A stretch of DNA of 64,000 bases, from assembly GCA_965235115.1 (NCBI GenBank), contig OZ249436.1:310001-374000 (forward strand), given 5' to 3'. The stretch comes from Laetmonice hystrix (taxonomy: Eukaryota). The notes under the pieces are model-generated. The model worked only from the letters and a program-made list of their open reading frames with translations, searched no databases and had not been told where the DNA came from. Of this stretch, positions 9,761 through 15,700 are shown one piece after another. A program made the translations under genes and the position numbers. The first letter of the stretch is position 1. Every line of letters starts with the position of its first letter.

Positions 9761-12700
9761 GTAAGCAAACCTCAACCCTTTCTGTTGATCTTCCGCACTT
9801 TCATCTTTCTTTTGTCTCCTGCTACCTTCCATCTTCAAAGTCTTGCAACCCTCGGGGCTGTAGATACGCGTAATGAAAACTTTGGGTGATTTTTTTTCTG
9901 ATTCAAATAAAGCATTGTTCAGAATTATAAGGGGATGGTATGGTTTTCTTAATGTCGTCTCGATGTCTTCATGATGGATGTATAATTATGAAAACTTAGA
10001 AACTAAAGATATCTTGCTATGGATAAGAACAAAATCTAGTTAGTGAAGGTATTGAAATAGAACATGTGGATGGCCCGTTTGAAGTGGTCTCTATGGGAAC
10101 AAAAGCGCCGTTGGGTTTGCTAGACTGTCTGTGCCTGGATTGTGCCCCCGCCCCGACCCTTGCCAGGTTTTCATCGACCTGGTTTGCCACCAGGGGGCAG
10201 TAGTATCAACATGATCCCAGAAACCTGTGTTTGCTTAACGATTCGGTGCTGTAACCGTGTGATTTAGTTTGCAATGTTTGCTCTGAAATTCTTATTTGGG
10301 TTAAGTTGGTTGCATGGGCAAAGAAATTGGCATTGGACTCCTATGTGCTGTTTCATGGCCAATTCAATCAATTCTGTAGGTCTATATTTTTCCAAAAGAA
10401 AAATTAATTAAGCTGGAAAGTAAAATCCATTTTGAACATTTTAGTTAAATACTTAAAAGCTGACTACATTATTTGCAGTTTTAGGATTGTAAATTGCAGG
10501 ATTAATGTGTTTGATTTACAAGGTGTGCTGTCAGTGAGAGTGTTTAATGTGTTTTATTTACTAGGTGTGCTGTCAGTGACAGTGTTTAATGTGTTTGATT
10601 TACAAGGTGTGCGGTCAGTGAGAGTGTTTAATGTGTTTGATTTACAAGGTGTGCTGTCAGTGAGAGTGTTTAATACTTTAATGTGTTTGATTTACAAGGT
10701 GTGCGGTCAGTGAGAGTGTTTAATGTGTTTGATTTACAAGGTGTGCGGTCAGTGAGAGTGTTTAATGTGTTTGATTTTCAAGGTGTGTGGTCAGTGAGAG
10801 TGTTTAATGTGTTTGATTTACAAGGTGTGCGGTCAGTGAGAGTGTTTAATGTGTTTGATTTACAAGGTGTGCTGTCAGTGAGACTGTTTAATACTTTAAG
10901 GTGTTTGATTTACAAGGTGTGCTGTCAGTGAGAGTGTTTAATGTGTTTGATTTACAAGGTGTGCTGTCAGTGACAGTGTTTAATGTGTTTGATTTACAAG
11001 GTGTGCTGTCAGTGAGAGTGTTTAATACTTTAATGTGTTTGATTTACAAGGTGTGCTGTCAGTGAGAGTGTTTAATGTGTTTGATTTACAAGATGTGCGG
11101 TCAGTGACAGTGTTTAATGTGTTTGATTTACAAGGTGTGCGGTCAGTGACAGTGTTTAATGTGCTTGATTTACAAGGTGTGCGGTCAGTGACAGTGTTTA
11201 ATGTGTTTGATTTACAAGGTGTGCGGTCAGTGAGAGTGTTTAATGTGTTTGATTTACAAGGTGTGCGGCCAGTGAGAGTGTTTAATGTGTTTGATTTACA
11301 AGGTGTGCGGTCAGTGAGAGTGTTTAATGTGTTTGATTTACAAGGTGTGCGGTCAGTGAGAGTGTTTAATGTATTTGATTTACAAGGTGTGCGGTCAGTG
11401 ACAGTGTTTAATGTATTTGATTTACAAGGTGTGCGGTCAGTGACAGTGTTTAATGTGTTTGATTTACAAGGTGTGCGGCCAGTGAGAGTGTTTAATGTGT
11501 TTGATTTACAAGGTGTGCTGTCAGTGAGAGTGTTTAATGTGTTTGATTTACAAGGTGTGTGGTCAGTGACAGTGTTTAATGTGTTTGATTTACAAGGTGT
11601 GCTGTCAGTGAGAGTGTTTAATGTATTTGATTTACAAGGTGTGCGGTCAGTGACAGTGTTTAATGTGTTTGATTTACAAGGTGTGCGGTCAGTGACAGTG
11701 TTTAATGTAAAAGGTGGCTGTGGGCAGATAATGGTGGAGGCGGGGATTAATGATCTATTTAACACCAGGGGGCACTCGCTATTGTTGTAAAGTCGGATAC
11801 CCGCCGACTGGGATGTGAAGGGTTATCTCATTTACTATCAGTAATTACCCTGAGGTTATCTAGAGTTACAATGTCTAGCCGTCGTGATTACACACATTAT
11901 TTTAAATGTCCATTGTTAGGTGAAGTGAGGAAATGAAAGTTTTAGGAAGCTATTATTCACAGCGAAGGATCAGATTATAATCGAATGAAGAAAACATTAG
12001 TTGTGTTTAGTTCAACTCAGTTTTACTGGTCCTGCTTCTAACAATAAAACCTGCACATTTCATACACAAGGACTTCCAAAAGGAATAGGAAGAGTTCCTC
12101 TAACTCATTACATGCTCCTTTTGGAAAGACCAAATTCGTACAGTCGTACAGTGATATCACGGAACTGTTATGTTCTCTTACCAGAGTTCCCTACTTGGCT
12201 CTGGCTAAAACATTTGAGGCAATCGAGGCAGTGTCTGCACGGTAAGTGACATTCCTTTCTTTGTTGGGTTAAATGAATTATTATAAGTTTTTATTCCTAT
12301 TGAACCTATTTTTATATATTAATAACCAAGATTTTTTGGTTTTTTGTTTTTATGTTTTTTGGTTCTTTTAAAATCCAGGTTAAAGATGATCGAGATCCTG
12401 AGTAACTTCCTGCGTTCCGTGATGGTGCTGACACCTGGTGACTTACTCAAGTGTATGTACCTGTGTCTGAACAAGATCTCGCCAGACTACGAGGGTTTGG
12501 AACTGGGAATCGGCGAGAGTTTGTTAATGAAAGCCATCGCTCAGGCTACAGGTACGTTTATAGGTGGGAGAGTTTGTTAATAAAACTCATCACTCAGGCT
12601 ACAGGTACGTTTATAGGTGGGAGAGTTTGTTAATGAAAGCCATCGCTCAGGCTACAGGTACGGTTATAGGTGGGAGAGTTTGTTAATAAAACTCATCACT

Positions 12701-15700
12701 CAGGCTACAGGTACGTTTATAGGTGGGAGAGTTTGTTAATGAAAGCCATCGCTCAGGCTACAGGTACGGTTATAGGTGGGAGAGTTTGTTAATAAAACTC
12801 ATCGCTCAGGCTACAGGTACGTTTATAGGTGGGAGAGTTTGTTAATAAAACTCATCGCTCAGGCTACAGGTACGTTTATAGGTGGGAGAGTTTGTTAATA
12901 AAACTCATCACTCAGGCTACAGGTACGGTTATAGGTGGGAGAGTTTGTTAATAAAACGCATCGCTCAGGCTACAGGTACGGATAAGGTGGGAGAGTTTGT
13001 TAATAAAACCCATCGCTCGGGCTACAGGTACGGTTATAGGTGGGAGAGTTTGTTAATGAAAGCCATCGCTCAGGCTACAGGTACGGTTATAGGTGGGAGA
13101 GTTTGTTAATAAAACTCATCGCTCAGGCTACAGGTACGGTTATAGGTGGGAGAGTTTGTTAATAAAACTCATCGCTCAGGCTACAGGTACGGTTATAGGT
13201 GGGAGAGTTTGTTAATAAAACTCATCGCTCAGGCTACAGGTACGTTTATAGGTGGGAGAGTTTGTTAATAAAACTCATCGCTCAGGCTACAGGTACGGTT
13301 ATAGGTGGGAGAGTTTGTTAATAAAACTCATCGCTCAGGCTACAGGTACGGTTATAGGTGGGAGAGTTTGTTAATAAAACTCATCGCTCAGGCTACAGGT
13401 ACGGTTATAGGTGGGAGAGTTTGTTAATAAAACTCATCGCTCAGGCTACAGGTACGGTTATAGGTGGGGGAGTTTGTTAATAAAACTCATCGCTCAGGCT
13501 ACAGGTACGGTTATAGGTGGGAGAGTTTGTTAATAAAACTCATCGCTCAGGCTACAGGTACGGTTATAGGTGGGAGAGTTTGTTAATAAAACTCATCGCT
13601 CAGGCTACAGGTACGTTTATAGGTGGGAGAGTTTGTTAATAAAACTCATCGCTCAGGCTACAGGTACGTTTATAGGTGGGAGAGTTTCGAGATTTTCGTT
13701 GGTGTCCGCCAGGTTTAATGCTTTCATCCTTGACATCAGAAGATTTTTCTGTTAGGCCCTGAAGGTAATGTGAAGGTCATATGAAAACCTGGCCCATCTC
13801 TTTCAGGTCGTAGCATGGACATGATCAAGATCGACGCCCAGGAGAAAGGGGACTTGGGAATCGTTGCAGAGGTAAACGCGAAATATTTCACCCTTGACCT
13901 TTCCAATCTTTGATGTTTTATGATAGGTTCTGACTTGAGAAGATGTTTAAAGAGTTGTAATTACAGTATTTCTTTTTCGACGTGTTGGGGTCAGTTTTAC
14001 GTTTTGGCATCTCCAGATGCAGATTGATGTATAGCCGTAACGATTTGTAGGAGATGCTTGTGGTGCCACCTGGTGGGACTTATTAACACTATTGACGGAG
14101 AGAACCATGACTTGTTTATGTGTTGATGATAGAAATTCTTACATTGTTGCTTTATTTTGATTGCAGACTAGTCGAAGCAGTCAGCGCACAATGTTTGCCC
14201 CTCCAAAGTTGACAGTCAATGGAGTATTTACAAAACTACGGGAGATTGCCGGAATGTCAGGAAATTCGGTGTGTTTCTGAAACTGGCCCATTTCATATCA
14301 GATTTATGTTGGAGCAGTGTCAGCTAGAAATTGTCAGTATTAGATCTGGGCATGATCCCATGCCATGATCCCATGCCATGATCCCATGCCATGATCCCAT
14401 GCCATGATCCCATGCCATGATCCCATGCCATGATCCCATGCCATGATCCGATGCCATGATCCCATGCCATGATCCCATGCCATGATCCCATGCCATGATC
14501 CCATGCCATGATCCCATGCCATGATCCCATGCCGACCCGTAATGTGGGACTACCATCAGGGTGACCACAGCACGGGGAAAACAGGGAAAATGGCAAAAGA
14601 AAACTCCCTGCAGGAAAACACAGGAATTTGTAAAAATCGCGAAAACACAGGGAAAACACATGAGGGAAAAATCAACGGCCGAGAAAAAAAAGGCAGATGC
14701 TCTAGGACATCTAGTGGTGCGTTCTAATCTGATTGGCTGCCTGGCCGCAGTATTTCACTAAAACACAACAGGTATATCTGATCACAGGGAAAATCGGTGA
14801 TTAGGCGCAGAAAATACAAGGAAAACGCAGGGAATTTGAAAATGAAATTTGAGTGGTGACGGTGTACCATGGGAGAACATTGAGGAGTTTTCCTGTTCCA
14901 GGTGATGACACAGAAGATTAACAACATCAAAGCCATGTTCGTAGCGTGTCGGCAGTCCGAGGCTCGGTTCCTGATTCGCTCGCTAGGTGGCAAGCTCCGT
15001 ATTGGGCTGGCCGAACAGTCAGTCCTGCAGGCGCTCGGCCAGGCGGTTGCCATGACACCGCCGGGACAAAGTAAGTCGGCTATGTCAGCTCCTACAGCTA
15101 CCCGTAACCTCATGAATTCATGTGGCAGCCAAGAACATATTAACATTCACTTTCAATTGTTTTTGGCAGCCTACCCCCCAAAGATACTTGATGGGTCCAA
15201 GGGCATGAAGGCCGAAAAGTTCAAGAAAAAGGTGGAAGAGACCGCTCTCATCATCAAGACAACTTACTGGTAAGTTTTCTCAGAAAGTGGGGCACCGGAA
15301 GGAGTACAACATAGGAGAAATATAGATATAGTGGGAAAATAACAAATCGGCAATAATTGGAAAGCTTAAAAAAGATGACCAAAATTAGTCGGCCTTCTTA
15401 CAGTGTCCCCTAACTCTACAGTGGCATCTTCTGTGTCCCCTGACTAGAGTGTCCCTAACTCTAGTGTCCCCTAACTCTACAATACTCTACAGTGTCATCT
15501 TCTGTGTCCCCTGACTAGAGTGTCCCTAACTCTAGTGTCCCCTAACTCTACAGTGTCATCTTCTGTGTCCCCTGACTAGAGTGTCCCTAACTCTAGTGTC
15601 CCCTAACTCTACAGTGTCATCTTCTGTGTCCCCTGACTAGAGTGTTCCTAACTCTAGTGTCCCCTAACTCTACAGTGTCATCTTCTGTGTCCCCTGACTA

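Follow-up and report, generated by a model that had tools for sequence, protein, structure and literature searches.

Human minisatellites whose first monomer lies across an exon-intron boundary are known from F7 IVS7, IFI6/6-16, CBS, LMNB2 and PDGF, as listed in the available text of Borensztajn et al. (2006, PMC1557585). According to that text, only the most upstream donor of the 37-bp VNTR in F7 IVS7 is used, even against stronger downstream sites, and minigene mutagenesis showed that the pseudo-sites become functional once the upstream site is inactivated (PMC1557585). Use of the authentic donor alone is likewise reported there for LMNB2 and PDGF intron 4, which have units of 100 and 81 bp, and use of the first two pseudo-sites besides the authentic donor for IFI6 and CBS (PMC1557585). 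Intron 2 of IFI6 (6-16) is cited in the same text as carrying 25 pseudo-donors after the authentic donor (Turri et al. 1995, via PMC1557585).

We found a minisatellite of this type in the LIG1 gene of Laetmonice hystrix, in a window of 64,000 nucleotides (the whole stretch of DNA that was analysed). About 17 exons in 9661-31210 were collinear with residues 439-1091 of P0001 and also with P0010, both of which carry PF04675, PF01068 and PF04679. This collinearity covers the N-terminal DNA-binding, adenylation and OB-fold regions, as expected of a LIG1 orthologue. Translation of 12380-12550 matched residues 45-101 of the human DNA ligase 1 chain 8b8t_A with an E value of 1.4e-16, and the PDB matches of this exon, which bears the array, were DNA ligase 1 chains. 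The translation of 13809-13871 aligned with residues 103-123 of human LIG1 at an E value of 0.62, which is weak alone; the alignment is exactly contiguous with that of the preceding exon, residue 102 being the codon that is split by the intron (G/GT, the slash marking the exon border). When P0070 was used as a query, 10 of the 11 matches fell within 322-341 kb of C1, that is, in the window, and the remaining one, on C2, had 38% identity. LIG1 is thus a single-locus gene and for this reason likely indispensable. Summed tblastn identities were 63-70% to the LIG1 proteins of amphioxus, acorn worm, abalone, scallop, brachiopod and tube worm.

The exon structure around the array, as proposed in the earlier note, was borne out by a spliced contig of 2,943 nt (depth 87.5) from X4, a run whose kind is unrecorded and which nevertheless contains spliced contigs. 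This contig links 12551 to 13807 and joins four neighbouring introns as well, with GT..AG throughout. It covers 12378-12548 with joints at both ends, and the joint placed at 12548 and 13804 becomes GT..AG when the cut is moved by +3. The earlier note had called 13807 the acceptor; the exon does start there, but 13807 is its first base and the AG lies at 13805-13806. The two exons concerned are as follows.

12379 to 12551, plus strand: LIG1 exon of 173 nt, the last 37 nt of which are the exonic part of unit 1 (human LIG1 alignment, tblastn with P0001 and P0010, X4 contig)
13807 to 13871, plus strand: next LIG1 exon, 65 nt (alignment to human LIG1 residues 103-123, tblastn, X4 joints on both sides)

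The array starts inside the first of these exons. TRF reported a period of 53, 22.2 copies, 96% matches, 0% indels and a score of 2143 for 12515-13687, and parsing of this head-to-tail array gave 22 full units, all of 53 bp except a single one of 52 bp. Unit 1 (12515-12567) combines 37 nt of LIG1 exon (12515-12551) with 16 nt of intron (12552-12567). In the array, we counted 22 occurrences of the motif ACAGGTACG, with the last exon-type base at 12551, 12604 and so on to 13663. The earlier claim of some 22 donors in tandem was therefore accurate, since ACAG/GTACG is present exactly 22 times and it is the exon end together with its donor that is reiterated. The intron now measures 1255 nt, and subtraction of the 1112 duplicated bases leaves 143 nt. 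As had also been noted before, the collapsed, array-free sequence has the 8-bp microhomology GAGAGTTT at each end; the chance of eight extra matching bases is about 4^-8. No other locus of the 53-bp unit was found in the genome by a search that passes over common words and thus gives weak evidence, and across the whole window no known RNA family reached its gathering score. The features of the array, all read on the plus strand, are listed below.

12515 to 13687, plus strand: minisatellite of 22 full 53-bp units and 8 further bp (TRF and unit parse)
12515 to 12522, plus strand: GAGAGTTT, left copy of the 8-bp microhomology (sequence reading)
12549 to 12557, plus strand: authentic 5' splice site CAG/GTACGT, cut after 12551 (X4 joint, split codon G/GT)
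12568 to 13679, plus strand: units 2-22 with the 21 decoy donors (unit table)
12578 to 12583, plus strand: TAATAA, two in-frame stops for any read-through past the first donor (translation)
13664 to 13806, plus strand: the 143 nt that run from decoy donor 22 through the acceptor AG, equal to the array-free intron (sequence reading)
13680 to 13687, plus strand: GAGAGTTT, right copy of the 8-bp microhomology, with unique intron sequence 3' of it (sequence reading)

We then compared the 22 donors. The authentic 9-mer CAG/GTACGT is kept in 7 of the 21 decoys (units 2, 4, 6, 7, 14, 21 and 22), and the other 14 read CAG/GTACGG, differing from it at +6. Every decoy is preceded by ATAGGTGG followed directly by GAGAGTTT, whereas unique exon sequence lies upstream of 12515, in front of donor 1. 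Splicing from any of the 21 decoys leads to a stop at codon 67 (TAA at 12578-12580), in agreement with the earlier view that only the first donor maintains the frame. The first donor is the donor of the dominant assembled transcript, since the X4 contig joins 12551 to 13807. Of the copies of the 37-nt exon end, just one adjoins unique exon sequence. The RNA evidence consists of this one contig from one sample, and contigs lose rare variants and cannot display RNA ends, while NMD strips stop-containing isoforms; minor decoy use is thus invisible in them. For this reason, the absence of X4 cover inside 12555-13775 was not counted against decoy use or intronic polyadenylation, and decoy use in vivo, even substantial, may be compatible with the contig evidence.

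The LIG1 array is of a kind already described and is a further member of the F7 IVS7 type. In both genes the first monomer spans the boundary, identical pseudo-donors (near-identical in LIG1) lie downstream of the authentic donor, and the mRNA shows the most upstream donor alone (for LIG1, in one assembled contig), as far as the available text on F7 goes (PMC1557585). From the same text, most downstream sites of F7 give a premature stop, as do all 21 decoys of LIG1. The 37-bp unit of F7, with 4 exonic and 33 intronic bases, is present in 5-9 copies, whereas LIG1 has 22 copies of a 53-bp unit (37 and 16). LIG1 further differs from F7 in its invertebrate host, in encoding a replication ligase and in having units that diverged into types, and pseudo-site competence, demonstrated for F7, is putative in LIG1. 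The question of how the first donor is chosen, raised in the earlier note as a puzzle, thus has a precedent in F7 IVS7, in which the most upstream donor alone is reported to be used (PMC1557585, available text). CBS IVS13, LMNB2 and PDGF intron 4 resemble LIG1 in having a minisatellite over the exon-intron border, but these genes are human and their units differ in size from that of LIG1, according to what is available of that report. IFI6 and LIG1 have similar numbers of pseudo-donors (25 versus 21). The 12-nt unit of IFI6 keeps the frame, whereas every LIG1 decoy gives a stop. LIG1 thus offers a clean invertebrate case of an oddity known from a few human genes.

The array also amounts to a natural competition experiment, with 22 near-identical donors facing one acceptor in a single-copy invertebrate replication gene. 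Decoy 22 rebuilds the 143-nt ancestral intron, and if donors were chosen by proximity or by intron definition it should be a good competitor. Even so, it is the first donor that appears in the assembled transcript, which would extend the upstream-most rule of F7 to a non-mammal; for LIG1, this rule is carried over by analogy from the mammalian experiments. We also considered an RNA fold that would hide the decoys. The region 12480-12780 was no more stable than its shuffled versions (z of -0.59; 28 of 100 shuffles at least as stable). The authentic 9-nt donor had an unpaired probability of 0.059 in local partition-function calculations (windows of +-100 nt), second among the 22, against 0.0016-0.087, mostly near 0.010, for the decoys. 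This gap in accessibility is modest and model-dependent and thus explains nothing.

Comparison of the units indicated that those in the intron have drifted. AATAAAACTC replaces the exon's AATGAAAGCC in 18 of the 21 intronic units, and the exon version is kept in units 3, 5 and 11. LMKAIAQAT, the peptide that the exon version encodes, is the most frequent form among 81 aligned LIG1 relatives; the other unit version is thus derived, and the presence of three linked changes in 18/21 intronic units points to drift as non-coding DNA. The commonest unit, which combines a weaker donor (G at +6) with altered exonic bases, could reflect selection against competent decoys. However, although no decoy unites the exon-type 37 nt with GTACGT, this count does not differ significantly from the approximately 1.0 expected from the marginals (3/21 and 7/21).

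The earlier note had presented the tolerance of decoys by an essential gene as a puzzle. This tolerance is unsurprising given the density of arrays in the region. We counted 42 merged arrays in the window, covering 45% of it, and 10 arrays in the 21.5-kb LIG1 span, covering 47%. Under random seeding, 0.49 donor-spanning arrays are expected in LIG1, and the probability of at least one is 0.38. At such a density, with about half a donor-spanning array expected, the array calls for no special tolerance.

Taken with the precedent of F7, these observations suggest that the array is probably a by-product of microhomology-seeded duplication that is harmless through choice of the upstream-most donor. 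A 53-bp tandem duplication would by chance have straddled the exon-intron junction of single-copy LIG1, seeded by the direct repeat GAGAGTTT with its copies 53 bp apart, in a genome and at a chromosome end where arrays appear to form at a very high rate. Slippage or unequal exchange may later have enlarged and reshuffled it. The splicing machinery would commit to the donor furthest upstream, which directly adjoins the real exon, as in the F7 IVS7 experiments, on a 5'-to-3' or an exon-definition basis. Because of this commitment, the 21 downstream copies would be silent, or rarely used and then yielding stop-containing RNAs that are degraded. We infer that the array has been retained because it does almost no harm.

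A regulatory role appears unlikely to us. In such a role, an idea raised in the earlier note, a set fraction of the transcripts would be spliced from decoys, gain the TAA at 12578 and enter NMD, and copy number would set the ligase level. The single early stop shared by 21/21 decoys would suit it, as would the presence of the authentic 9-nt donor in seven decoys and of the authentic 37 exonic bases in three others, the full ancestral intron restored by decoy 22, and the first two pseudo-sites reported as used in IFI6 and CBS (PMC1557585, available text). However, the one form that was assembled is spliced from donor 1, no decoy-spliced or stop-containing form was present among the X4 contigs, which drop rare forms, and the identical downstream sites of F7 are described in the same text as wholly unused (PMC1557585). 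Mutation pressure alone, moreover, predicts an array, and nothing suggests an altered LIG1 protein or a regulated switch. The derived units have another property that could bear on LIG1 output. Their G>A change creates an AATAAA; 18 nt further on comes a CA, at the donor, and after it a G/U-rich stretch (18 units), so that the array holds 18 of the 44 plus-strand hexamers of the window, about 15 per kb versus 0.41 per kb elsewhere. Each unit might then be a composite of poly(A) signal and U1 site, in which U1 bound at the decoys would block premature cleavage (telescripting) and render LIG1 output sensitive to U1; prevention of intronic polyadenylation by U1 is described for human, mouse and Drosophila in the available text of PMC5499120. 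We regard this as distinctly improbable, since ten AATAAA in the LIG1 span outside the array are without apparent effect, the hexamer belongs to a set of three linked changes and is perhaps a passenger, and no polyadenylated end was seen in the array, though contigs cannot show RNA ends. It would be a long shot to propose that 18 intronic poly(A) sites are silenced only by U1 at the decoys, each a strong U1 site lying exactly where cleavage would occur, with LIG1 output following U1 supply and NMD of decoy-spliced RNA and copy number acting as the dial. If true, junction-spanning arrays of this sort might be carried by many genes, minisatellites making up about 14% of the genome, and such genes would let the rules of 5' splice-site choice outside mammals be tested naturally on a genome-wide scale.

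The array, or its length, might finally be an artefact of assembly. No contig of the DNA runs X1-X3 spans the whole array, all three runs come from one sample, perhaps the assembly's own, and some depth ratios do not fit the assembled copy numbers. In all three, however, contigs end at 12544 and restart at 13670, at the two borders, with unit-length contigs of raised depth between them. Contigs across unit junctions reached several times the single-copy depth; in X1, a 53-mer present in 5 copies in the assembly had a depth of 322.6 compared to about 60-68 for single-copy sequence. Depth ratios were mixed overall: about 5.2 where the assembly has 5 copies (X1) and, where it has 6, 3.3-7 in one case and about 13 in another (X3), X2 being ambiguous; X1 thus agrees with its 5 assembled copies, and the depth of X3 is about twice that of 6. 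The unit variants are interspersed, unlike those of a collapsed or inflated repeat. An artefact is thus very improbable, and by-product duplication is the reading that we retain.

None of the nine other arrays in LIG1 crosses an exon junction. Minisatellites reach 19-36 nt from exon edges in four other LIG1 introns. In twenty 10-kb samples from four contigs, minisatellites averaged 13.7% of the sequence, with a range of 0-49%. Since minisatellites make up nearly half of LIG1 and lie close to exon edges, junction-spanning arrays should be common, and they could be mined together with RNA-seq for testing rules of splice-site selection.

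The 53-bp minisatellite at window positions 12515-13687 overlies an exon end and splice donor of the single DNA ligase 1 (LIG1) gene of this genome. The translated exon (12379-12551) aligned with residues 45-101 of human DNA ligase 1 (8b8t_A, E = 1.4e-16), and the next exon (13807-13871) with residues 103-123, a match that is weak by itself (E = 0.62), yet in exact continuation of the first. Residue 102, absent from both alignments, is the split codon G|GT. Two LIG1 relatives of full length, P0001 and P0010, each of which carries PF04675, PF01068 and PF04679, served as tblastn queries and placed about 17 exons in order over 9661-31210. 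A search with P0070 gave 11 matches in the 627-Mb assembly, 10 of them at the LIG1 locus and one on another contig at 38% identity.

TRF run on the window reported period 53, 22.2 copies and 96% matches without indels over 12515-13687. Parsing of unit boundaries on the anchor G[AG]GAGTTT gave 22 full units, one of them of 52 bp, followed by the 8-bp GAGAGTTT at 13680-13687, after which unique intron begins. Unit 1 comprises 37 nt of exon (12515-12551) and 16 nt of intron, and ACAG|GTACG occurs exactly 22 times. The earlier note's description of the array was right on all checkable points. The authentic 9-mer CAG|GTACGT is common to 7 of the downstream decoy donors; the other 14 have G at +6, as do 3 of the 16 authentic LIG1 donors. 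A genome-wide search that skips common words found no copy of the 53-bp unit outside this locus, and no Rfam family matched in the whole 64-kb window.

Translation that continues past donor 1 runs into TAA at 12578-12580, with a second TAA immediately next, and codon 67 of the exon frame is a stop for the products of all 21 downstream donors. Only the first donor yields ligase. Four coded runs from a single sample (X1-X4) cover this stretch. X1-X3 behaved like DNA: intron cover was even, contigs ended at 12544 and restarted at 13670, and unit-length contigs at raised depth came from between these positions. X4, whose kind is not on record, gave one 2,943-nt contig (depth 87.5) that leaves out 12242-12378, 12552-13806, 13872-14166, 14268-14901 and 15071-15169, with GT..AG at all skips once cut offsets are applied. 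In this contig the 37-nt exon end is present once and joined to unique exon sequence, indicating that the donor used is the first. The first-donor form is therefore the dominant transcript, which does not mean that the decoys are never used: the contig represents one sample, rare variants are lost from contigs, transcript ends and levels are invisible in them, and NMD would clear decoy-spliced RNA. At the end of the intronic part of each unit (within 12552-13679) stands TTATAG|G, which weakly resembles an acceptor, so each unit could in principle act as a 41-nt pseudo-exon; the single X4 contig from this one sample contained no such form. In the exon after the array, a T>A change at 13822 (ATG to AAG, Met to Lys) was seen in the X4 RNA contig and in X1 and X3 DNA contigs and was absent from X2.

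GAGAGTTT stands at both ends of the collapsed sequence, 53 bp apart. Since 8 bases would match past the last full unit with a chance of only about 4^-8, the simplest origin of the array would be a duplication that started from this microhomology. The exon's AATGAAAGCC is kept in units 1, 3, 5 and 11, and the 18 other units carry AATAAAACTC, which amounts to three linked changes. The exon version, LMKAIAQAT, has the commonest residues among 81 aligned LIG1 relatives, so this version is ancestral and the intronic units drifted as non-coding DNA. Units differ at three variable sites, which are combined in several ways along the array, with near-uniformity in units 12-20, a pattern consistent with repeated slippage or unequal exchange. 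Removing the 1,112 duplicated bases leaves an intron of 143 nt, similar to the preceding one (137 nt); the donor of unit 22, taken with 13664-13806, reproduces this 143-nt ancestral intron exactly.

The minisatellite load of the window (C1:310001-374000, near one end of a 73.8-Mb contig) is extreme: 42 merged arrays cover 45% of it, and within the 21.5-kb LIG1 span 10 arrays take up 47%. The mean share in twenty 10-kb samples of four contigs was 13.7% (range, 0-49%), and the samples with the highest shares came from within 2 Mb of the start of C1. We modeled the eight arrays of at least 100 bp as each growing from a seed of one unit length at a random position in the collapsed 11.8-kb gene with its 16 donors; 0.49 donor-spanning arrays were expected, with a probability of 0.38 for at least one. 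At this local density the tolerance of an array in LIG1 is unsurprising. Mutation pressure alone thus explains its existence, so that only its harmlessness is left to explain. Four other LIG1 intronic arrays (15433-17004, 18731-19131, 24441-25812 and 26779-30310) end 19-35 nt off an exon edge. In three cases the end lies shortly before an acceptor, in the place expected for the branch point and pyrimidine tract; the junction itself lies inside none of the four.

Harmlessness has a published precedent in F7 IVS7, a human minisatellite whose first monomer lies on an exon-intron boundary. Borensztajn et al. (PMC1557585) list human cases in F7, IFI6/6-16, CBS, LMNB2 and PDGF. For F7 IVS7 they describe 50 constructs in which the pseudo-sites were functional and the most upstream functional donor was always selected, even against downstream sites with higher U1 complementarity; they found no RNA structure or intronic element that explained the choice. 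Similarly, the upstream-most LIG1 donor was the one in mRNA, as far as contigs can show. Our own checks agree with the lack of a structural explanation: a fold of the exon end with five units was not more stable than shuffles (z = -0.59), and the predicted accessibility of the authentic donor (0.059, against mostly about 0.010 for decoys) ranked second of 22, a modest gap. Junction-spanning donor minisatellites are already known, and the LIG1 array adds a new case. The earlier note's observation was confirmed. The puzzle that it drew from it, how the first donor is chosen, found support only in part: an array here is unsurprising at this density, and upstream-most choice has its precedent in F7.

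The array may still tune LIG1 through NMD, a question that the note also raised. In a further reading, U1 bound at the decoys could silence poly(A)-like sites within the units, comparable to telescripting (PMC5499120). AATAAA arises in the derived type of unit, and the array thereby holds 18 of the 44 plus-strand hexamers of the window, and 18 nt after each of these a CA at the donor is followed by a G/U-rich stretch, resembling a poly(A) site. However, ten further AATAAA hexamers occur in the LIG1 span outside the array, and we regard the U1 reading as a tentative lead from sequence.

DNA contigs skipped an array of 14 copies of 13 bp at 14351-14533 (joint 14356>14527 in X1-X3); rather than a deletion allele, this is probably the short period collapsing in the contig graph. 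At 14553-14885, depth rose to as much as 2,634 versus about 60 nearby, with many loose ends and odd joints in all four runs, which suggests a high-copy interspersed repeat in the LIG1 intron. Further open frames lie elsewhere in the window:

34446-35468, minus strand, 341-aa open frame matching reverse transcriptase RVT_1 (E = 4.7e-26) over positions 67-205 of the 205-position profile
47803-48906, plus strand, 368-aa open frame with a CBX-family C-terminal motif at its end (E = 8.7e-12)
57288-58598, minus strand, 437-aa open frame with ankyrin repeats

The frame at 34446-35468, downstream of LIG1, is a retroelement fragment, and the other two are neighbouring genes. A 55-bp array begins about 20 nt past the CBX-family frame.
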